Of a DNA stretch of 64,000 nt, positions 16,971-27,142 are shown one piece after another. Under the pieces are notes generated by a model. The model was not told the origin of the DNA and searched no databases. It saw only the letters and a program-made list of their open reading frames with translations. This DNA comes from Shigella phage ESH35, in the sequence record ON528745. One strand, written 5' to 3'. Both the position numbers and the translations under genes were made by a program. Position 1 is the first letter of the stretch. Each line of letters starts with the position of its first letter.

Positions 16971-17306
16971 ATGTCTGAAGTACAACAGCTACCAATTCGT
17001 GCTGTCGGTGAATATGTTATTTTAGTTTCTGAACCTGCACAGGCTGGTGATGAAGAAGTTACAGAATCAGGACTTATTATCGGTAAACGTGTTCAAGGTG
17101 AAGTTCCTGAACTGTGTGTAGTTCACTCTGTTGGTCCTGATGTTCCTGAAGGTTTCTGCGAAGTTGGTGATTTGACTTCTCTTCCAGTTGGTCAAATTCG
17201 AAATGTTCCGCATCCTTTTGTAGCTCTGGGTCTTAAGCAGCCAAAAGAAATTAAACAAAAATTCGTCACTTGCCACTATAAAGCTATTCCATGTCTTTAT
17301 AAGTGA
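16971..17306 (+). CDS. 31: Co-chaperonin gp31 (GroES-like, capsid folding)
   Basis: 111-aa product [19 protein letters not shown]...; size and position of T4 gp31. Confidence 0.85.
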
Positions 17307-17453
17307 TATAAATAATAATATGAATTGGGTGTCGGAATAATAAGTTAACCGAACAATTCTATGTGGTAGTCTACAACTGAGAGATCTGTCGAAAGAAGAT
17401 GAAATTCAGAAGAACGTGACTACCGAGTTTTAATCTCTAACGAGAATTTTTAA

Positions 17454-17702
17454 ATGATTAAACAATTACAACACGCTCTTGAACTGCAACGAAACGCATG
17501 GAATAATGGTCACGAAAACTATGGCGCATCTATTGATGTTGAAGCCGAAGCTCTTGAAATCCTGCGTTATTTCAAACATCTAAATCCTGCTCAAACTGCA
17601 TTAGCTGCTGAGCTTCAGGAAAAAGATGAACTTAAGTATGCTAAGCCTCTGGCTTCTGCTGCACGAAAAGCAGTTCGTCACTTTGTGGTAACATTGAAGT
17701 AA
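17454..17702 (+). CDS. rIII: Lysis inhibition accessory protein rIII
   Basis: 82-aa ORF MIKQLQHALELQRNAWNN...; size and position of T4 rIII. Confidence 0.8.
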   Translation: MIKQLQHALELQRNAWNNGHENYGASIDVEAEALEILRYFKHLNPAQTALAAELQEKDELKYAKPLASAARKAVRHFVVTLK

Positions 17703-17947
17703 TTTATTGGAGATTCACTGCCTTAGTGTGAGCTAAAATCGAGGAGCCATCGAACTGTCTGATTAATGATTTGCGAATCATTATAGTTTTAAGACCCCGG
17801 CAGTTTTATGGTGTACCTCTTGAATGTGAATGATGACGGGTTTATGGTTATCCTGGTCGTTAAATACCCAAAAACCTATGTTCCCCTTGAGGGCTTGCGC
17901 AGGCAATGCCAATAAGTCCTGCATTTTCATTTAAAAGAGAATTTATA

Positions 17948-18124
17948 ATGGCAAAACAAGCTAAAGCAAAGAAAGCAGTTGAAAAGAAAGTTGGTGATTC
18001 TAAACGCGCTGGTTACAAGCGTGGGTCGAACTCTCGTATCAATCAAACTGTTGAGAAGATCATGCGCCGAGCACGTGCGGTTCTTCGAGATGATGCTTCT
18101 CGTTTTGGTAAGCAGAAAGCATAA
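17948..18124 (+). CDS. Hypothetical small lysine/arginine-rich protein (58 aa; start uncertain)
   Basis: ORF MAKQAKAKKAVEKK...; followed immediately by a strong terminator hairpin. Confidence 0.45.
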   Translation: MAKQAKAKKAVEKKVGDSKRAGYKRGSNSRINQTVEKIMRRARAVLRDDASRFGKQKA

Positions 18125-18128
18125 GTTG

Positions 18129-18158
18129 AGGACTCCTTCGGGAGTCCTTTTTTATTTT
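18129..18158 (+). terminator. Rho-independent terminator
   Basis: AGGACTCC-TTCG-GGAGTCCT followed by TTTTTTATTTT. Confidence 0.8.
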
Positions 18159-18177
18159 CCAAAGATTGCATAAAGTT

Positions 18178-18207
18178 GTTTACAGTATGGTTCCTTTGTG
18201 ATAGTAT
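18178..18207 (+). promoter_or_regulatory. T4 early-type sigma70 promoter
   Basis: GTTTACA, 17-nt spacer, TAGTAT. Confidence 0.6.
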
Positions 18208-18234
18208 TATCTTACACAAACAAAGGAGAATAAA

Positions 18235-18567
18235 ATGAAAACGATTAATCTGAACGCTGCAGTTAAAGCTAAATGCTTCAATGGTGAATATAACGAAACT
18301 ATGTGGTTCTTAATGGCAGTTGAAGGTGATATTATTGAAGTAGAAACAACAGAAGGTATGGGAACAGATTTCACCTTTACAATTCAAGTTCATAATTTCT
18401 TTACTGGTTGGATTTATGAATTGAATACAGTAATCGTTGGAAAAATTGAACAAAATGAATTAGGTGAATGGTATTATGTTACAGCTCGCCAACGTGCCGA
18501 ACGCTTAATTGAGAAGATGAAAAAAGTCGGTAAGCTTGACATGAAGCACTGGAAAGTAGTAAAATAA
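18235..18567 (+). CDS. Hypothetical protein (110 aa)
   Basis: ORF with AAAGGAG RBS downstream of an early-type promoter. Confidence 0.55.
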   Translation: MKTINLNAAVKAKCFNGEYNETMWFLMAVEGDIIEVETTEGMGTDFTFTIQVHNFFTGWIYELNTVIVGKIEQNELGEWYYVTARQRAERLIEKMKKVGKLDMKHWKVVK

Positions 18568-18569
18568 TT

Positions 18570-18599
18570 GTTTACTTTGGTACAGGATATGATATTATA
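18570..18599 (+). promoter_or_regulatory. T4 early-type sigma70 promoter
   Basis: GTTTACT, ~17-nt spacer, TATTAT; spacer inverted repeat GGTACAGG...CCTGTACC. Confidence 0.55.
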
Positions 18600-18635
18600 T
18601 ACCTGTACCGCAATTAAACATCTCGGAGAACAAAA

Positions 18636-19001
18636 ATGAACTACATCAACTTTGAACGTAAATATGTTTCTAATGGTATTGCAGGTTCTATTGATACTAT
18701 TTGCCTTTGGAAACATCAAAATGGATCAGTATGCGAAATTGAACAGTATATGACTCCTAACTACGTTTATATGCGATTTGAAAATGGCATCACGGTTTCA
18801 ATCACAATGGAAGGTTCAAATTTTAAAATCGCTTTAGATGATGATTTTCGTCAACGCGATTTAGGGACTCATCCTTGCTGGAATGGTGATAATCGCAAGC
18901 TTTTGGTTAAAACTTGGATTCGTCATATTCTGAGTAACAGAGCTAAACCTGAGCATCTTGAAGCAATCTTTGATGTAGTTCTTAACGAATTTGATATTTA
19001 A
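18636..19001 (+). CDS. Hypothetical protein (121 aa)
   Basis: ORF with GGAGAA RBS downstream of an early-type promoter. Confidence 0.55.
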   Translation: MNYINFERKYVSNGIAGSIDTICLWKHQNGSVCEIEQYMTPNYVYMRFENGITVSITMEGSNFKIALDDDFRQRDLGTHPCWNGDNRKLLVKTWIRHILSNRAKPEHLEAIFDVVLNEFDI

Positions 19002-19042
19002 AATAAAATGAGGGGCTTCGGCCCCTTACTGAGGAAAATATT

Positions 19043-19330
19043 ATGTTTATGACTACTTATTTTGACACCCGCAAAAATTTTTGTGAAGTGGTTTTCTCAA
19101 AGGCACCTAAAGACCTTCCTGCTCATTTGCAGCCTACCAGTGAATCGATTAAAAATTACGTTGATGTGGTTTGTCCTTTAGAATTCCGTACAGTAAATGG
19201 GCGTGATACTTTAGCTATCGCTAAACTTAATCGTGAAATTGACATTGACCCTTCAATTGCGCGTGAAATTAATATTTCTGATATTGGCGGCGGTAATGTT
19301 AAATCGCATGGTTTTCAGATGAGGTTCTAA
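19043..19330 (+). CDS. Hypothetical protein (95 aa)
   Basis: ORF with GAGGAAA RBS. Confidence 0.5.
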   Translation: MFMTTYFDTRKNFCEVVFSKAPKDLPAHLQPTSESIKNYVDVVCPLEFRTVNGRDTLAIAKLNREIDIDPSIAREINISDIGGGNVKSHGFQMRF

Positions 19331-19527
19331 TGAAATTCTTTTTAGGTCAAACTGTTGAATTAAAGGGAGTTGGTATACCTGGATTAATTTCTAAGGTTCT
19401 ACCTCCATTTAAATGGAGTGGTGTTCAAATAAAAGAGGCTTATATTGTTTCCTGGGTAGATGGAAATGAAGACCTTCGTATGGGTGATGAATTGTCTCCT
19501 ATTTACGGATTAAAGGAATTAGTATGA
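19330..19527 (+). CDS. Hypothetical small protein (65 aa)
   Basis: ORF overlapping neighbours (TAATG). Confidence 0.45.
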   Translation: MKFFLGQTVELKGVGIPGLISKVLPPFKWSGVQIKEAYIVSWVDGNEDLRMGDELSPIYGLKELV

Positions 19528-19730
19528 ATATAATTAATAAGATTTTTGGAATTCAGTACATTAAGGTCACATATAAAGTAACAGATAAAAATCCATATAC
19601 TGATGAACATGAAGAACCACAAGTTGAGTCTATTATATTAGAAAAGGACCCTAACTGGCCAGTTGAATTTCGTCTTCCTTGCTATGGTCATTGGGCTGAT
19701 GTTGAAATTATAAGTATTGAAAATGTCTGA
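19524..19730 (+). CDS. Hypothetical small protein (68 aa)
   Basis: ORF overlapping neighbours. Confidence 0.45.
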   Translation: MNIINKIFGIQYIKVTYKVTDKNPYTDEHEEPQVESIILEKDPNWPVEFRLPCYGHWADVEIISIENV

Positions 19731-20181
19731 GTTAGAGATTAGAAGCAATTTTAGATGGCCATCGTGTGCATTAAGTAATTTCGCCCAATGGCCTTTCGTC
19801 ATGGATGGTATTCAATTCGGAGGTCTTGAAGGATTCCTCCAAGGATGCAAGGTGAAAAATGTTGAACAACAAAAACGTATATTTGGGCTCTCCGGCTTGG
19901 CCGCCCAGCAAAGTGGAAGAGCTTATGCAAGAGCTGCGGACCGTGGGACGCTTTTCTGGCTTGGAATTCCCTTTTCAAGATACTCTGCAGCATGGAAAGA
20001 GTTGTATACAAATGCATATTTTGAAGCAGCGATTCAAAACAAGGGGTTTCGTGATGCCTTACAAGCCTCTAAAGGAAAAATTTTGAAGCATAGCATGGCT
20101 AGTGGTCTAACAAAAGATGATACAATACTAACCGAAGCTGAATTTATTGATGTGTTAAACCTATTAAGAGACTCTCTATGA
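19717..20181 (+). CDS. NADAR/YbiA-like (DUF1768-like) protein, divergent
   Basis: Motif LSNFAQWPFVMDGIQFGGLEGFLQGCK parallels the FSNFAxWP..DG...SEHYFQAxK signature of YbiA/NADAR proteins (pattern recalled from memory). Confidence 0.5.
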   Translation: MKMSELEIRSNFRWPSCALSNFAQWPFVMDGIQFGGLEGFLQGCKVKNVEQQKRIFGLSGLAAQQSGRAYARAADRGTLFWLGIPFSRYSAAWKELYTNAYFEAAIQNKGFRDALQASKGKILKHSMASGLTKDDTILTEAEFIDVLNLLRDSL

Positions 20182-21020
20182 AGCCTACTATTTTGACTGA
20201 TATTGACGGGGTGTGTTTAAGCTGGCAATCGGGCCTTCCTTATTTTGCCCAAAAATATAATCTTCCGTTGGAACATATTTTAAAAATGATTCAGGACGAA
20301 AAATTTATTTCTCCTGGTAAGCTCTTTAATTGCGATGAAGAACTTGGTGTTAAATTAATCGAAAAGTATAATCGTTCAGATTTTATTCGCTATTTGTCTC
20401 CATATAAAGATGCCCTGTGTGTAATTAACAAATTAAAAGAAGATTATAATTTTGTAGCTGTTACAGCACTGGGTGATTCTATTGACGCTCTGCTGAATCG
20501 TCAATTTAATTTGAATGCTCTTTTTCCTGGTGCCTTCTTAGAAGTATTGATGTGTGGTCATGATTCTTCAAAAGAAGAGTTGTTCAAAAAGGCAAAAGAG
20601 AAATATAACGTAATTTGTTATATTGACGATCTCGCTCACCACTGCGATCATGCGAGTGAAATATTAAATGTTCCTGTTTATTGGATGGCTCGAGGGGAGC
20701 GTGACAGTATTCCAAAAACTGCACAGCGAGTTTATACATGGAATGATGTAGAGAATAAGCTTTTTCCATCGAATGAAAATAAAGAAAGTTTTGATAGTGA
20801 AAAAGCTATAAAAGATGTAATTGAAAAGATGATTAAAAACGATTCTTTTCGTTGGAATACTACCTGGAGAACTCCTGGATTAAATCCATACCATCCATAT
20901 TATACACATCCATATCATGTGCATCCATTTCATACATGGAACTATATTAAACCTGGTGGCATAGAGTATTTGTATAATAGACCTACTAGTGGTGATAATA
21001 TTTTACAAGGAGCATTCTAA
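20178..21020 (+). CDS. HAD-superfamily hydrolase, 5'(3')-deoxyribonucleotidase-like, with His/Pro/Tyr-rich C-terminal tail
   Basis: N-terminal HAD motif I ILTDIDGVCLSW; C-terminal repeat NPYHPYYTHPYHVHPFHTW. Confidence 0.55.
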   Translation: MKPTILTDIDGVCLSWQSGLPYFAQKYNLPLEHILKMIQDEKFISPGKLFNCDEELGVKLIEKYNRSDFIRYLSPYKDALCVINKLKEDYNFVAVTALGDSIDALLNRQFNLNALFPGAFLEVLMCGHDSSKEELFKKAKEKYNVICYIDDLAHHCDHASEILNVPVYWMARGERDSIPKTAQRVYTWNDVENKLFPSNENKESFDSEKAIKDVIEKMIKNDSFRWNTTWRTPGLNPYHPYYTHPYHVHPFHTWNYIKPGGIEYLYNRPTSGDNILQGAF

Positions 21021-21289
21021 TGTTTGTTGTTCATACTATTTATGAAAATGAAGGTAATACTACACGTGATTACGGTCACGTAAATCAATTTTTTAGATGC
21101 AATCCAGAATTCCGAGCTCAAAAAGACGAACGAATTTTTAAAAAATGTGTAGAGCAAGGTTTCATTTACGTCAAGCACTGGATGCAAGGAAATAAAGTTA
21201 GAACCACGTACCACAGGTCTTTGACTGAGCTTAATGATGAATTGATTTATAATAGAGCTGTAAACCAAACTCTAAAGGATGAACAATGA
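21020..21289 (+). CDS. Hypothetical protein (89 aa)
   Basis: ORF immediately upstream of the DNA ligase gene. Confidence 0.45.
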   Translation: MFVVHTIYENEGNTTRDYGHVNQFFRCNPEFRAQKDERIFKKCVEQGFIYVKHWMQGNKVRTTYHRSLTELNDELIYNRAVNQTLKDEQ

Positions 21290-22749
21290 TTCTTAAAATT
21301 CTGAATGAAATAGCATCTATTGGTTCAACTAAGCAAAAGCAAGCAATTCTTGAAAAGAATAAAGATAATGAATTGCTCAAACGAGTATATCGTCTGACTT
21401 ATTCTCGTGGGTTACAGTATTATATCAAGAAATGGCCTAAACCTGGTATTGCTACCCAGAGTTTTGGAATGTTGACTCTTACCGATATGCTTGACTTCAT
21501 TGAATTCACATTAGCTACTCGGAAATTGACTGGAAATGCGGCAATTGAGGAATTAACTGGATATATTACTGACGGTAAAAAAGATGATGTTGAAGTTTTG
21601 CGTCGGGTGATGATGCGAGACCTTGAATGCGGTGCATCAGTATCTATTGCAAACAAAGTTTGGCCAGGTTTAATTCCTGAACAACCTCAAATGCTGGCAA
21701 GTTCTTATGATGAAAAAGGCATTAATAAGAATATCAAATTTCCAGCCTTTGCCCAATTAAAAGCTGATGGAGCTCGGTGCTTTGCTGAAGTCAGAGGTGA
21801 TGAATTAGATGATGTTCGTCTTTTATCACGAGCTGGTAATGAATATCTAGGATTAGATCTTCTCAAGGAAGAGTTAATCAAAATGACTGCAGAAGCTCGC
21901 CAGATTCATCCAGAAGGTGTGTTAATTGATGGCGAATTGGTATACCATGAGCAAGTTGAAAAGGAGCCAGAAGGCCTAGATTTTCTTTTTGATGCTTATC
22001 CTGAAATTAGTAAAGCTAAAGAATTCGCCGAAGTAGCTGAATCACGTACTACTTCTAATGGAATCGCTAATAAATCTTTAAAGGGAACTATTTCAGAAAA
22101 AGAAGCTCAATGCATGAAGTTTCAGGTCTGGGATTATGTTCCGTTGGTAGAAATATACGGTCTTCCGGCGTTTCGTTTAAAATATGATGTACGTTTTTCT
22201 AAACTAGAACAAATGACATCAGGCTATGATAAAGTAATTTTAATTGAAAACCAGATAGTAAATAACCTAGATGAAGCTAAGGTAATTTATAAAAAGTATA
22301 TTGACCAAGGTCTTGAAGGTATTATTCTTAAAAATATCGATGGATTATGGGAAAATGCTCGTTCAAAAAATCTTTATAAATTTAAAGAAGTAATTGATGT
22401 TGATTTAAAAATTGTAGGAATTTATCCTCACCGTAAAGACCCTACTAAAGCAGGTGGTTTCATTCTTGAATCAGAGTGTGGAAAAATTAAAGTAAATGCT
22501 GGTTCAGGCTTAAAAGATAAAGCCGGCGTAAAATCACATGAACTTGACCGTACTCGCATTATGGAAAACCAAAATTATTATATTGGAAAAATTCTAGAGT
22601 GCGAATGCAACGGCTGGGTAAAATTAGATGGACGTACTGATTACGTTAAGCTATTTCTTCCAATTGCAATTCGTTTACGTGAAGATAAAACTAAAGCTAA
22701 TACGTTCGAAGATGTATTTGGCGATTTTCATGAGGTAACTGGTTTATGA
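21286..22749 (+). CDS. 30: ATP-dependent DNA ligase
   Basis: 487-aa product with ligase adenylation motif KADGARC; same length as T4 gp30. Confidence 0.95.
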   Translation: MILKILNEIASIGSTKQKQAILEKNKDNELLKRVYRLTYSRGLQYYIKKWPKPGIATQSFGMLTLTDMLDFIEFTLATRKLTGNAAIEELTGYITDGKKDDVEVLRRVMMRDLECGASVSIANKVWPGLIPEQPQMLASSYDEKGINKNIKFPAFAQLKADGARCFAEVRGDELDDVRLLSRAGNEYLGLDLLKEELIKMTAEARQIHPEGVLIDGELVYHEQVEKEPEGLDFLFDAYPEISKAKEFAEVAESRTTSNGIANKSLKGTISEKEAQCMKFQVWDYVPLVEIYGLPAFRLKYDVRFSKLEQMTSGYDKVILIENQIVNNLDEAKVIYKKYIDQGLEGIILKNIDGLWENARSKNLYKFKEVIDVDLKIVGIYPHRKDPTKAGGFILESECGKIKVNAGSGLKDKAGVKSHELDRTRIMENQNYYIGKILECECNGWVKLDGRTDYVKLFLPIAIRLREDKTKANTFEDVFGDFHEVTGL

Positions 22750-22931
22750 AAGCTTACTTAGAAACAATTGTCGTGGCTCAAAAAGAAGGTGGAGATGTTT
22801 CCACTGCGGTATCGCAGGTTATTCTTGAATTCCCAGATAAACTAGCATATGATGAATTCACGGAAAGATTTGATCCATATGAAAAAGGTCCAAAGTTTGA
22901 AGTATATCGTACTCTTTTAGCTCTCTATTAA
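22746..22931 (+). CDS. Hypothetical small protein (61 aa)
   Basis: ORF overlapping the ligase stop; followed by a terminator hairpin. Confidence 0.45.
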   Translation: MKAYLETIVVAQKEGGDVSTAVSQVILEFPDKLAYDEFTERFDPYEKGPKFEVYRTLLALY

Positions 22932-22933
22932 TT

Positions 22934-22956
22934 AAAGGCCTTCGGGCCTTTAATTT
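22934..22956 (+). terminator. Terminator hairpin between ligase operon and alt
   Basis: AAAGGCC-TTCG-GGCCTTT followed by AATTTT. Confidence 0.6.
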
Positions 22957-22964
22957 TATAAATA
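22957..22964 (+). promoter_or_regulatory. T4 late promoter (TATAAATA) for alt
   Basis: Exact TATAAATA 24 nt upstream of the alt start. Confidence 0.6.
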
Positions 22965-22987
22965 GAATAAACACTAGAGAGGATAAC

Positions 22988-25081
22988 ATGGAACTTATTA
23001 CAGAATTATTTGACGAAGATACTACTCTTCCGATTACAAACTTAAATCCAAAGAAGAAAATACCACAAATTTTTTCAGTTCATGTTGATGATGCAATTGA
23101 ACAACCAGGCTTTCGTTTATGTACCTATACATCTGGAGGTGATACTAATCGCGATTTAAAGATGGGCGATAAAATGATGCATATTGTTCCTTTTACATTA
23201 ACTGCTAAAGGCTCAATTGCTAAATTAAAAGGTCTTGGTCCAAGCCCAATTAATTATATCAATTCAGTTTTTACTGTTGCAATGCAAACGATGCGTCAAT
23301 ATAAAATTGATGCCTGCATGCTTCGTATTCTTAAGTCTAAAACTGCTGGCCAAGCTCGACAAATTCAAGTTATTGCTGATAGACTTATCCGTAGTCGTTC
23401 AGGTGGCAGATACGTCCTTCTTAAGGAACTCTGGGATTACGATAAAAAGTATGCATATATTCTTATACATCGCAAAAATGTATCATTAGAAGACATTCCA
23501 GGAGTTCCAGAAATTAGCACTGAACTCTTTACTAAAGTTGAATCGAAGGTCGGTGATGTTTATATCAATAAAGATACTGGAGCTCAAGTAACTAAAAATG
23601 AAGCAATTGCAGCATCTATTGCGCAAGAAAATGATAAACGTTCTGACCAAGCCGTAATCGTTAAAGTTAAAATTTCCCGTAGAGCAATTGCACAAAGTCA
23701 GTCATTGGAATCTTCTAGATTTGAAAGTGAATTATTCCAGAAGTATGAATCTACAGCAGCTAATTTTAATAAACCAGCTACTGCACCTTTAATTCCCGAA
23801 GCAGAAGAAATGAAAATTGGAATTAATTCATTAGCTTCTAAAACAAAGGCAGCAAAAATTATTGCTGAAGGAACGGCAGATGAACTTCACTATGATTATA
23901 AATTCTTTCCAATGAGTCAAGTCGGTGAAGTTTCAGAAAAAATTAAAGAAGTAATTTTTAATGCAATTAAAAATGAACCAACTACTTCAATAAAATGTTT
24001 AGAGAAATACGCAGCAGCTGTAAATCAATTCTTTGAAGATTATAAAGATAAATGGCTTGCTAATCATAATAAAAATCGTAAAGGACAACCAGATGAAGTC
24101 TGGGAAGAAATAACTAAAAATTCCTGGAACGCAGCAAAAACTAAATTCCTCAAACGAATGATTTACAGTTTTTCTGGAATTGGTGCTGGTCCAATGATTG
24201 ATATTACTATTGCCCGCGATGGTTCTAAATATACTCCATCACAAAAGCGTGGCATTAGAGAATATTGCGGTTCAGGATATACTGACATCAATAATCTTCT
24301 TTTAGGTCGTTACAATCCAGAACGATATGATGTAATGAGTGAAAAAGAAATTGAATCTGCTATAAATAACTTAGATTCAGCTTTTGAAAATGGTGACCGT
24401 ATACCAGAAGGCATTACAGTTTATCGTGCTCAAAGTATGACTGCTCCTATATATGAAGCGTTAGTTAAAAATAAAGTGTTCTACTTCAGAAATTTTGTAT
24501 CTACTTCTTTAACTCCTATCATTTTTGGACGTTTTGGAATCACACATGCTGGTATTGGTCTTTTAGAACCAGAAGCTCGCAATGAATTAACAGTTGATAA
24601 AAATGAAGAAGGAATAACTATTAATCCAAACGAAATAAGAGCGTATAAAGAAAATCCTGAATACGTTAAAGTTCAAATAGGATGGGCAATTGATGGAGCT
24701 CATAAAGTTAATGTTGTATATCCAGGAAGTCTCGGAATAGCAACAGAAGCTGAAGTTATTCTACCGCGTGGATTGATGGTCAAAGTTAATAAAATAACTG
24801 ATGCTTCTAATAATGACGGAACAACATCTAATAATACAAAACTCATTCAAGCTGAAGTTATGACCACGGAAGAGCTCACCGAATCGGTAATCTATGACGG
24901 AGACCATTTAATGGAAACCGGTGAAGTAGTTGCAATGACAGGTGATACTGAAATAGAAGACAGAGTTGACTTTGCATCATTTGTTTCATCAAACGTTAAA
25001 CAGAAAGTAGAATCATCTCTTGGAATTATTGCGTCTTGCATAGATATTACAAACATGCCTTACAAGTTCGTTCAAGGATAA
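22988..25081 (+). CDS. alt: Alt-like NAD-protein ADP-ribosyltransferase (virion-packaged type), copy 1
   Basis: 697-aa product starting MELITELFD; ART R/STS/ExE motifs (VYRAQ, FVSTSLTP, ATEAEVILPRG); late promoter TATAAATA just upstream. Confidence 0.85.
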   Translation: MELITELFDEDTTLPITNLNPKKKIPQIFSVHVDDAIEQPGFRLCTYTSGGDTNRDLKMGDKMMHIVPFTLTAKGSIAKLKGLGPSPINYINSVFTVAMQTMRQYKIDACMLRILKSKTAGQARQIQVIADRLIRSRSGGRYVLLKELWDYDKKYAYILIHRKNVSLEDIPGVPEISTELFTKVESKVGDVYINKDTGAQVTKNEAIAASIAQENDKRSDQAVIVKVKISRRAIAQSQSLESSRFESELFQKYESTAANFNKPATAPLIPEAEEMKIGINSLASKTKAAKIIAEGTADELHYDYKFFPMSQVGEVSEKIKEVIFNAIKNEPTTSIKCLEKYAAAVNQFFEDYKDKWLANHNKNRKGQPDEVWEEITKNSWNAAKTKFLKRMIYSFSGIGAGPMIDITIARDGSKYTPSQKRGIREYCGSGYTDINNLLLGRYNPERYDVMSEKEIESAINNLDSAFENGDRIPEGITVYRAQSMTAPIYEALVKNKVFYFRNFVSTSLTPIIFGRFGITHAGIGLLEPEARNELTVDKNEEGITINPNEIRAYKENPEYVKVQIGWAIDGAHKVNVVYPGSLGIATEAEVILPRGLMVKVNKITDASNNDGTTSNNTKLIQAEVMTTEELTESVIYDGDHLMETGEVVAMTGDTEIEDRVDFASFVSSNVKQKVESSLGIIASCIDITNMPYKFVQG

Positions 25082-25084
25082 ATC

Positions 25085-27142
25085 ATGGAACTTATTACAG
25101 AATTATTTGACGGCGCTTCGGCGCCGGTTGTTAACTTAAATCCTAAGCATAAAATACCACAAATTTTTGCTATTCAAGCCGGTGAAGAAAGCGTGCTTCC
25201 TGGATTTAGATTTTGTACATACACCTCTGGCGGTGATACGAATAAAAACGTTAAGCCAGGCGACAAAATGATGCATATCGTAATGATAGGCGTCAACGAG
25301 AAATTATCGTTAGTTAAGCTTAAAAACTTGGGTGGAAATCCAATTGGCGTCATTAATGCGGTTTTTGATACTGCTCTTCAAACAATGAAACAGTATAAAA
25401 TTGATGCATGCCTATTCCGCGTACTAAAAAGTAAAACAAATGGCGCTGCTCGTCAAATGCAAGTTATTGCTGACCGTTTAGTACGTACTAAAGGAGCAGG
25501 TCGATATGTTCTTTTAAAGGAAATCTGGGACTATGATAAGAAATACGCATATATTATGGTTTACCGTAAAAATGCCAATTTAGAAGACATTCCAGGTGTA
25601 CCTCCTATTTCAACTGAGTTATTCACAAAAGTTGAATCAAAGGTTGGTGATGTTTATGTAGACGTTAAAACAGGTAATGCTGTTCCTAAAGCTGTCGCAG
25701 TTGCTGCTTCTATTGCTTTAGAAAATGATAAGCGTACGGATCAAGCTGTTATTCAGAAAACTAAAATTAGTCGTCGATTAGCAGCACAAGCTCAATATTC
25801 TACTGTTGATGCTTCACTTCAGGGTGATAGCTTCGCTGCTAAGAAATATCAAGAGTTTGAATCTAAAGTTCCGGTATATAAAGCAGAAGGACCAATGAAC
25901 TCTGGCGTTATTCAGATTGGTTCAAACTTCAGCAAAGGAGCTATCGGTGGTATGAGAAGTGCTTCTCGTTTTAAATCTAACGATTATGAACTAGAAAGCT
26001 TCCGAAATCATATTGCATTAGCCCATGCACGTTTACGTGATCCATCTATCAAGTTGCAGAGCGATATAACATATCAAAGTTCTCAAGAATATTTAAAGAA
26101 TAAAGAATTTTTTGATTATAAAACTGATAAAATTTTAAGCGATCTTGCTGACATTAATATTTCTAATAGCTTTGATGTTATTAAGAAAATTGTCAATGAT
26201 TTAGTTAAAGGTTCTAAAGCTACGCCAGATGAAAAGACAGCTATTATTCAATTTGTCATGAATGGCATTTATAAATTAATTGATGAATCCGCTGCTCAGG
26301 CGTATGAATATGCAAGCACTGAAGTAACTCCAAAAGGATTGACTCAGGCTGAGTCTGATGTAATTGAAGATTATTGCGCAGATTCGTATGTTGAAATGAA
26401 CTCATTCCTTTTAGGTAAACCTGATTCTACACGTGAAGAATACATGGAGCGCGCTATTAAGCACATCGAGACTATGGATTCTGCGTTTGCTAAAGGTTCA
26501 GTTCTTCCTCCGGGAACTACACTTTACCGTGGCCAAGAAGTTACTTTTAAAACTTTACGTCATAATATAGAAAATAAAATGTTCTATTTCAAGAACTTTG
26601 TATCTACTTCACTCAAGCCAAATATCTTCGGTGAATATGGTAAAAATTATATGGCTTTAGATGACGCTGGAACAGTATTTTCTGGTGAAGGAGAAGGTTC
26701 AGTTGATGCTGAAGATTTAATGCATATGGGTAGTCATTCTACATATGCGAATGAAGACGCTGAAACTAATGTAGGTATGGTAATTAAAGGAGCTGAACGA
26801 GTTAAAGTTATCGTTCCAGGTCATTTATCAGGATTTCCATCCGAAGCTGAAGTTATTTTGCCGCGTGGAATTTTACTGAAGATTAATAAAGTAAGTACGT
26901 ACATGATGAAAGAAACCGCTTATAATAAGTATCTAATTGAAGGCACGATTGTTCCTCCTTCTGAACAATTAGAGGAATCGGTATATGATGGTGACCATTT
27001 GATGGAAACCGGAGAAGTTCGTCCAATGGCTGGATTTAATCAATTCCTTGTAGAAGAATCAAAAGAAGAGGAAAGCGAAGTTTCTCAAATCTTAGCTTCT
27101 TTGGTTAACATCAACGGAATGTCTAAAAAGTTCAAAATGTAG
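25085..27142 (+). CDS. Alt-like ADP-ribosyltransferase paralog, copy 2
   Basis: 685-aa product also starting MELITELFD; ART motifs (LYRGQ, FVSTSLKP, PSEAEVILPRG); N- and C-terminal regions similar to copy 1, central region divergent. Confidence 0.8.
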   Translation: MELITELFDGASAPVVNLNPKHKIPQIFAIQAGEESVLPGFRFCTYTSGGDTNKNVKPGDKMMHIVMIGVNEKLSLVKLKNLGGNPIGVINAVFDTALQTMKQYKIDACLFRVLKSKTNGAARQMQVIADRLVRTKGAGRYVLLKEIWDYDKKYAYIMVYRKNANLEDIPGVPPISTELFTKVESKVGDVYVDVKTGNAVPKAVAVAASIALENDKRTDQAVIQKTKISRRLAAQAQYSTVDASLQGDSFAAKKYQEFESKVPVYKAEGPMNSGVIQIGSNFSKGAIGGMRSASRFKSNDYELESFRNHIALAHARLRDPSIKLQSDITYQSSQEYLKNKEFFDYKTDKILSDLADINISNSFDVIKKIVNDLVKGSKATPDEKTAIIQFVMNGIYKLIDESAAQAYEYASTEVTPKGLTQAESDVIEDYCADSYVEMNSFLLGKPDSTREEYMERAIKHIETMDSAFAKGSVLPPGTTLYRGQEVTFKTLRHNIENKMFYFKNFVSTSLKPNIFGEYGKNYMALDDAGTVFSGEGEGSVDAEDLMHMGSHSTYANEDAETNVGMVIKGAERVKVIVPGHLSGFPSEAEVILPRGILLKINKVSTYMMKETAYNKYLIEGTIVPPSEQLEESVYDGDHLMETGEVRPMAGFNQFLVEESKEEESEVSQILASLVNINGMSKKFKM

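Follow-up and report, generated by a model that had tools for sequence, protein, structure and literature searches.

An intact adfN allele overlapping a gene for a HAD-superfamily hydrolase in Shigella phage ESH35

Shigella phage ESH35 carries an intact copy of gene 30.3, renamed adfN, whose T4 orthologue removes ADP-ribose from DNA and protects the phage against the DarTG1 defence system. The gene lies in a 64,000-nucleotide stretch of the phage DNA (record ON528745; hereafter the window, to which all coordinates refer), where it overlaps gene 30.2, coding for a hydrolase of the HAD superfamily. The explanation that fits best overall, to which we give a probability of about 0.93, is that AdfN acts in anti-DarT1 repair, and that 30.2 encodes a coupled, capped HAD phosphatase standing outside the anti-DarT mechanism. 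The adfN system found here is already known and has been characterised experimentally in T4. Three elements matter for what follows:

19723..20181, plus strand: adfN (gene 30.3), assigned as a NADAR-superfamily DNA ADP-ribosylglycohydrolase of 152 aa, with catalytic residues E36, K43 and H123 and an intact C-terminal helix.
19717..19722, plus strand: two in-frame codons (TTG AAA) 5' of the adfN ATG, included in the mechanical call of the open reading frame (ORF) and probably outside the translated AdfN.
20178..21020, plus strand: gene 30.2, assigned by its HAD motifs and fold model as a C1-capped, NT5C-like HAD-superfamily hydrolase of 280 aa.

A preliminary description of this DNA, made from the sequence alone, had reported a 154-aa ORF with a NADAR-like peptide. 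Both the ORF and the peptide are present, the mechanical ORF (19717-20181, plus strand) containing LSNFAQWPFVMDGIQFGGLEGFLQGCK, but its length has to be corrected. The TTG at 19717 lies two codons 5' of an ATG at 19723; the T4 annotation starts 30.3 at the corresponding ATG (459 nt, 152 aa), and counting from ATG 19723 gives the catalytic residues the numbers under which they were published, E36 and K43. Because annotation and residue numbering agree, we rejected TTG 19717 as the start and placed it at ATG 19723, so that the real gene is most likely 19723-20181, with a product of 152 aa.

AdfN of this phage aligns with T4 gp30.3 over 152/152 residues without gaps at 95% identity, and none of the eight conservative substitutions that separate the two proteins falls at a catalytic position. 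It matches the Pfam family PF08010 (Phage_30_3, 'Bacteriophage protein GP30.3') with an E-value of 3e-67 and 225 bits, against a cut-off of 36. Positions 19000-23000 of the window are 99.5% identical to Escherichia phage MLF4, a Tequatrovirus (T4-like phage). Given the PF08010 score and the near identity of the region to a sequenced phage, adfN is not a chance ORF. The same region is matched by 732 phage records, nearly all of the Tequatrovirus type and from E. coli, Shigella and their relatives.

To define conserved positions in the family, we collected 105 homologues of AdfN and aligned the 65 that were full length. Eleven residues were invariant in this alignment (P13, S18, N19, F20, F25, E36, G37, Q40, H123, T134 and T137), and K43 was kept in 63 of the 65 members; in the other two, the catalytic lysine is replaced by histidine. 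E36 and K43 sit in the segment LEGFLQGCK. The preliminary description had placed the ORF in the NADAR/YbiA family while pointing out that the His of the SEH motif was replaced, and the searches bear it out on both counts. The residue concerned is the family-invariant G37. The Pfam NADAR family PF08719 is matched by 24 of the 65 aligned members (best E 1.5e-7), the AdfN of this phage itself matching PF08010 only in the Pfam scan. When the family profile was compared with the sequences of the PDB, E. coli YbiA (2b3w) was the sole meaningful match (E 0.007). The profile alignment pairs E36 with the Glu of the YbiA SEH motif and K43 with the Lys of its QAQK motif, so both catalytic residues align and the ORF does not fall into an unrelated family.

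Public gp30.3 products are often truncated (86-126 aa) or fused to PF11097, PF06919 or PF06019. Such records suggest that frameshifts, recombination or miscalled genes are frequent at the locus, and they are reminiscent of the inactive RB69 allele described below.

The structure of AdfN was modelled with AlphaFold2 (AF2) from the family alignment, at a predicted local distance difference test score (pLDDT) of 92.5 and a predicted template modelling score (pTM) of 0.88. A Foldseek search of the PDB with this model returned YbiA 2b3w, the NADAR protein of G. lovleyi (8bat) and that of P. nicotianae with ADP-ribose (8bau), with probabilities of 1.00, 0.99 and 0.98, respectively; all other PDB matches were at noise level. 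Against YbiA 2b3w the E-value was 1.5e-4 and the TM score 0.69. In the model, H123 directly follows the predicted strand 120-122, and the C-terminal helix (aa 138-151) is intact, with pLDDT above 90. By fold, by the catalytic Glu and Lys, and by profile, AdfN is a member of the NADAR superfamily.

What does AdfN do? Phage crosses identified gene 30.3 as the determinant that makes T-even phages resistant to DarTG1, and the gene was renamed adfN (Johannesman, Carlson & LeRoux, PMC11257639). Deletion of adfN made T4 and T2 about 10^4-fold more sensitive to DarTG1, and AdfN expressed in trans rescued RB69, a rescue that was abolished by E36A and by K43A (PMC11257639). The RB69 copy itself is frameshifted, lacks the last 15 aa and is inactive, and purified T4 AdfN stripped ADP-ribose from DarT1-modified DNA (PMC11257639). 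On DNA in vitro, T4 gp30.3 hydrolysed guanine-ADP-ribose and left thymine-ADP-ribose intact (PMC11125620). Phage gp30.3 proteins have been classed as a NADAR subfamily whose last strand carries a His, at a position occupied by Glu in YbiA and by Asp in the NADARs associated with DarT (BC4488/DarG1) (PMC11543638, PMC11125620); H123 is this subfamily-defining histidine and the third catalytic residue.

Genome-wide data point the same way. In a T4 transposon sequencing screen (HIDEN-SEQ), insertions in 30.3 were depleted on a DarTG1 host with a log2 fold change (log2FC) of -7.25 (adjusted p value, padj, of 0), and the gene was dispensable on K-12 without DarTG1 (10.1101/2025.11.20.689424). The only other significant hit was 30.4, the gene upstream, whose insertions were mildly depleted (log2FC -1.79, padj 0.014; 10.1101/2025.11.20.689424), probably through polarity or translational coupling onto adfN and not through a function of its own. 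The suggestion of the preliminary description, that the protein could be a counter-defence enzyme removing the guanine ADP-ribose written by DarT toxins, is therefore one that has been proven for a 95%-identical T4 orthologue (PMC11257639, PMC11125620, 10.1101/2025.11.20.689424).

Because the allele of ESH35 shares this identity with T4 AdfN, has all the key residues and keeps its full C-terminus, we infer with high confidence that it would remove guanine-ADP-ribose from DNA and protect against DarTG1 in the same way. The T4 protein is its orthologue: the two agree in length, in their neighbours (30.4 upstream and 30.2 downstream), in the E36/K43/H123 set and in the PF08010 assignment, and the function that the present allele is predicted to share was demonstrated on the T4 and T2 proteins. 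By the mechanism shown for T4, which we extend to this phage, infection of a DarTG1-carrying host would lead DarT1 to ADP-ribosylate guanines of the phage DNA, which would block its replication. AdfN, a small stand-alone N-glycosidase of the NADAR fold, would then cleave the guanine-ADP-ribose bond and restore the DNA, allowing the phage to escape. Catalysis would be carried out by E36 and K43 together with H123, which would stand in for the Glu of YbiA or the Asp of DarG1.

Among cellular proteins, the clade reported to be nearest to AdfN is DarG1, the NADAR antitoxin of DarTG1 (PMC11257639), known from G. lovleyi (8bat) and from E. coli C7. DarG1 shares the fold of AdfN (Foldseek probability 0.99) and likewise hydrolyses guanine-ADP-ribose on DNA (PMC11257639, PMC11543638). 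The two proteins differ in the residue at the H123 position, which is Asp in DarG1 (PMC11125620, PMC11543638), in size (219 residues for DarG1 versus 152) and in genetic setting, DarG1 being encoded beside DarT1 whereas AdfN is an orphan. Moreover, AdfN cannot substitute for DarG1 in uninfected cells (PMC11257639, PMC11125620). E. coli YbiA (2b3w; NADAR/DUF1768, PF08719) is the best structural match and shares the SNFA...DG...E..FQ..K core with AdfN, but it has SEH where AdfN has LEG and a last-strand Glu where AdfN has His; it belongs to another subfamily, with a role as an N-glycosidase of riboflavin intermediates (PMC11125620, PMC11543638). T4 AdfA (gp61.2) and AdfM (the Tk.4 macrodomain) serve the same purpose as AdfN, namely countering DarT, yet neither is related to it in sequence: AdfA binds and blocks DarT1 and does not repair DNA, and the AdfM macrodomain acts against DarTG2, which writes thymine-ADP-ribose (PMC11257639, 10.1101/2025.11.20.689424).

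The gene that overlaps the end of adfN had been described as a HAD hydrolase of the 5'(3')-deoxyribonucleotidase type. Its product, 280 aa long, begins MKPTILTDIDGV and is 94% identical to T4 gp30.2; it belongs to phrog_420 ('unknown function'), and a literature search for gp30.2 found no papers. A Pfam scan of gp30.2 alone gave no HAD match and no PF06941 match at E<=1, and direct assignment with Pfam and NCBIfam returned only sub-threshold thiamine pyrophosphokinase noise. Since direct assignment gave nothing useful, the link to HAD and NT5C proteins had to come from scans of homologues, profiles and structure.

The HAD assignment is established. All of the 69 homologues aligned have D8, D10, K132 and either T96 or a Ser in its place, and D150 and D151 are conserved in 68/69. 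These residues make up the four HAD motifs (I, D8/D10; II, T96; III, K132; IV, D150/D151), and the HAD core spans aa 1 to about 200. The model of gp30.2 is confident for aa 1-200 and has the Rossmann-like HAD core fold, in which the motif residues lie at the ends of strands 1, 2 and 4 (strand positions 4-7, 91-96 and 145-150) and before helix 133-142. A helical insertion between motifs I and II (aa 16-86) gives the layout of a C1 cap. An Asp two residues after the nucleophile marks HAD phosphatases and mutases as opposed to dehalogenases, and this residue, D10, is invariant in the gp30.2 family.

The subfamily is less firmly fixed. Foldseek found 105 PDB matches to the gp30.2 model at E<=1e-3, the top one being the mouse cytosolic 5'(3')-deoxyribonucleotidase (cdN) 2jao (E 2e-8), and deoxyribonucleotidase entries had the lowest root-mean-square deviation and the highest target-normalised TM score among these matches. 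The family profile reaches cdN marginally (E 0.058). NT5C (PF06941) is matched by 14 of the 69 close relatives (best E 1.2e-4). An exhaustive search supplied 50 distant relatives, in which NT5C was the Pfam family found most often (17/50, best E 1.5e-9); gp30.2 itself does not reach the PF06941 family threshold. The deoxyribonucleotidase type is thus the best-supported subfamily guess available, reached through relatives only. With cdN, mdN and the bacterial 3bwv (NT5C, PF06941), gp30.2 shares a capped HAD fold, the DxDGV form of motif I and the DD of motif IV. It differs from them in its low identity (16-20%) and in an additional C-terminal extension of about 80 aa ending in a disordered, aromatic/His-rich tail.

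This tail (aa ~225-280, window ~20850-21017) is His/Pro/Tyr-rich (NPYHPYYTHPYHVHPFHTWNY...) and disordered in the model, with pLDDT of 40-59. It varies between phages, differing from T4 by a 2-aa indel and several His/Gln/Asn swaps, and relatives of about 200 aa occur that have no C-terminal tail. In metagenomes, the family counts about 1,280 cluster representatives. In our reading, 30.2 is translationally coupled to adfN, and its product, a capped HAD phosphatase, most likely has a small, nucleotide-like molecule as its substrate; the location of 30.2 here would reflect the gene order of T4-type phages, which links it to the DNA ligase gene.

The gene order around adfN is that of T4, on the opposite strand: 30.6, 30.5, 30.4, 30.3, 30.2, 30.1, 30 (ligase), alt.1 and alt. 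Around the two main genes, the window holds the following:

19524..19730, plus strand: gene 30.4, a small gene upstream of adfN (phrog_2042, E 4e-35).
19859..20086, plus strand: 30.3', a 75-aa ORF in another frame within adfN (T4 annotation).
21020..21289, plus strand: gene 30.1, DUF3045 (Pfam PF11243, E 3e-64).
21286..22749, plus strand: gene 30, ATP-dependent DNA ligase (PF01068, E 2e-32).
22746-22931, plus strand: alt.1, 61 aa, between ligase and alt (Pfam PF24647 'Phage blade protein', E 7e-28).
22988..25081, plus strand: alt, Alt-type ADP-ribosyltransferase of 697 aa (PF03496, E 1e-37), at the position corresponding to T4 alt.
25085..27142, plus strand: a second full-length Alt paralogue of 685 aa (PF03496, E 5e-20).

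As the preliminary description had it, 30.2 lies upstream of the ligase gene, from which it is separated by the small gene 30.1, and two Alt ADP-ribosyltransferases, both PF03496, follow at the distance that it gave, the alt genes beginning about 2.0 kb beyond the end of 30.2 (21020). The two Alt paralogues, both full length, share 41% identity. Where the second one lies, T4 is left with the remnants alt.-1 and alt.-2 in place of a full-length gene.

We also considered 30.3' as a second gene and rejected it. It is 71% identical to T4 30.3', versus 95% in the overlapping AdfN frame, and the 30.3' frame, which is open (53-75 aa) in close relatives and lost in distant ones, shows no evidence of purifying selection.

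Neighbouring genes overlap. The stop of 30.4 overlaps the adfN ATG by 8 nt, adfN and 30.2 overlap by 4 nt (ATGA), and the stop of 30.2 overlaps the start of 30.1 by 1 nt (TAATG). A promoter and terminator scan of 17000-23200 found 22 promoter-like sites versus 21.8 in shuffled sequence, that is, no excess. Because this count matches the shuffled sequence, our operon claim is confined to the overlapping stop and start codons. Further upstream, a strong terminator-like hairpin (18128-18149, plus strand; a 9-bp stem and a T run) follows a 72-aa ORF at 17906-18124, and a sigma-70-like promoter matching at 11/12 positions (TTGACA-18-TAAAAT; 18536-18565, plus strand) lies just 5' of gene 30.7.

Could AdfN act on something other than DNA, or not act at all? 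Before experiments were available, context analysis had proposed that phage NADARs work on soluble substrates (PMC9503650), and YbiA is the best structural match; AdfN might on these grounds act mainly on ADP-ribose-derived immune signals or on YbiA-like intermediates of the riboflavin pathway. We regard this as very improbable in view of the de-ADP-ribosylation of DNA shown in vitro and the DarTG1-specific phenotype (PMC11257639, PMC11125620, 10.1101/2025.11.20.689424), and adfN is non-essential without DarTG1. AdfN may nevertheless have a second, soluble substrate besides DNA. That the copy in this phage is an inactive remnant is less probable still. The frequent truncated or fused gp30.3 products in databases and the frameshifted, inactive RB69 copy would be in line with a remnant, but the present protein is full length at 152 aa, gapless against T4 and intact in its C-terminal helix, and it has all the invariant residues.

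Do adfN and 30.2 belong together in function? The preliminary description had combined adfN, 30.2 and the two alt genes into one cluster for handling ADP-ribose and nucleotides. In such a cluster the HAD enzyme could, for example, process the ADP-ribose or a phosphorylated product that AdfN releases, or AdfN could balance the Alt enzymes of the phage itself. The genes do lie close together on one strand, with stop/start overlaps running from 30.4 through the ligase gene, and NADAR genes of T4-like phages have been noted as early genes near ADP-ribosyltransferases (Iyer et al. 2022, PMC9503650). In the transposon screen, however, T4 insertions in 30.2 (log2FC -0.12, p 0.61), in 30.1 (-0.01) and in alt (-0.01) were neutral on DarTG1, as opposed to those in 30.3 (10.1101/2025.11.20.689424), and AdfN alone, supplied in trans, suffices to rescue RB69 (PMC11257639). 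Gene neighbourhoods were also counted, in 158 IMG/VR viral loci, 80 centred on AdfN and 78 on 30.2. Of the 80 AdfN-centred loci, only about 22 have a 30.2 homologue within 8 kb; in about 58 there is no homologue of 30.2, ligase or Alt within that distance, and the distant AdfN genes lack all three neighbours. In the 30.2-centred set, AdfN is present upstream in 35 of 78 loci, a point in favour of the cluster, and directly adjacent in 20; several genomes carry adfN and 30.2 homologues 50-60 kb apart. The adfN-30.2 adjacency is thus confined to part of the T4-like phages. The chemistry diverges as well, AdfN being specific for guanine-ADP-ribose whereas Alt acts on protein arginines, the residues that Alt enzymes modify. 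On the T4 transposon data and the neighbourhood counts we reject a functional AdfN/HAD/Alt cluster, which we consider quite improbable: as far as DarTG1 is concerned, the cluster is physical and not functional.

The neighbourhoods instead connect 30.2 with another gene. In 67 of the 78 loci the 30.2 homologue is followed within 700 bp by a ligase gene, the most constant neighbour of 30.2. The pair stays adjacent across very divergent T4-like phages, even in loci L157-L159 with their inverted order (ligase, two small ORFs, HAD, UvsY); in locus L151 the HAD gene precedes UvsX. Given the adjacency counts (67/78 for ligase versus 20/78 for adfN) and the inverted loci, the 30.2-type HAD gene tracks ligase and recombination genes, and not adfN. 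It is conceivable that gp30.2 works with the DNA ligase, either as a DNA-end phosphatase resembling the HAD 3'-phosphatase of polynucleotide kinase (PNK) or by removing a by-product of ligation, and weak matches to PNK-type phosphatases (phrog_415, E 0.0075; HAD_PNKP in 1/50 relatives) agree with such a role. We nonetheless hold it to be unlikely. All the loci come from one phage family with a conserved gene order, in which adjacency is weak evidence, and matches to NT5C outnumber those to PNKP 17 to 1. The gp30.2 model also carries the helical C1 cap at aa 16-86, and such caps, reportedly described by Burroughs et al. in 2006, are said to close over small substrates, phosphatases of macromolecules such as PNK being capless. 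Furthermore, 30.2 is dispensable for T4 on E. coli K-12, whereas the ligase is essential (10.1101/2025.11.20.689424). It is likewise doubtful, though worth stating, that gp30.2 is not a generic nucleotidase but a ligation or repair partner, or an editor of the nucleotide pool, that becomes essential under some defence or nutritional condition; a weaker variant of this idea would give AdfN a second substrate, nucleic-acid or soluble ADP-ribose, linked to Alt.

Most database records name both genes 'hypothetical protein', and we propose to label 30.3 AdfN and 30.2 a HAD-family, NT5C-like phosphatase. The interest that remains lies in what gp30.2 dephosphorylates and in why 30.2 tracks the ligase gene. 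For adfN, this locus adds one more intact allele to a known system, published for T4 in 2023-2025. AdfN matters as a textbook example of how a phage can take over a repair enzyme of the antitoxin type and use it to reverse a defence that modifies DNA.

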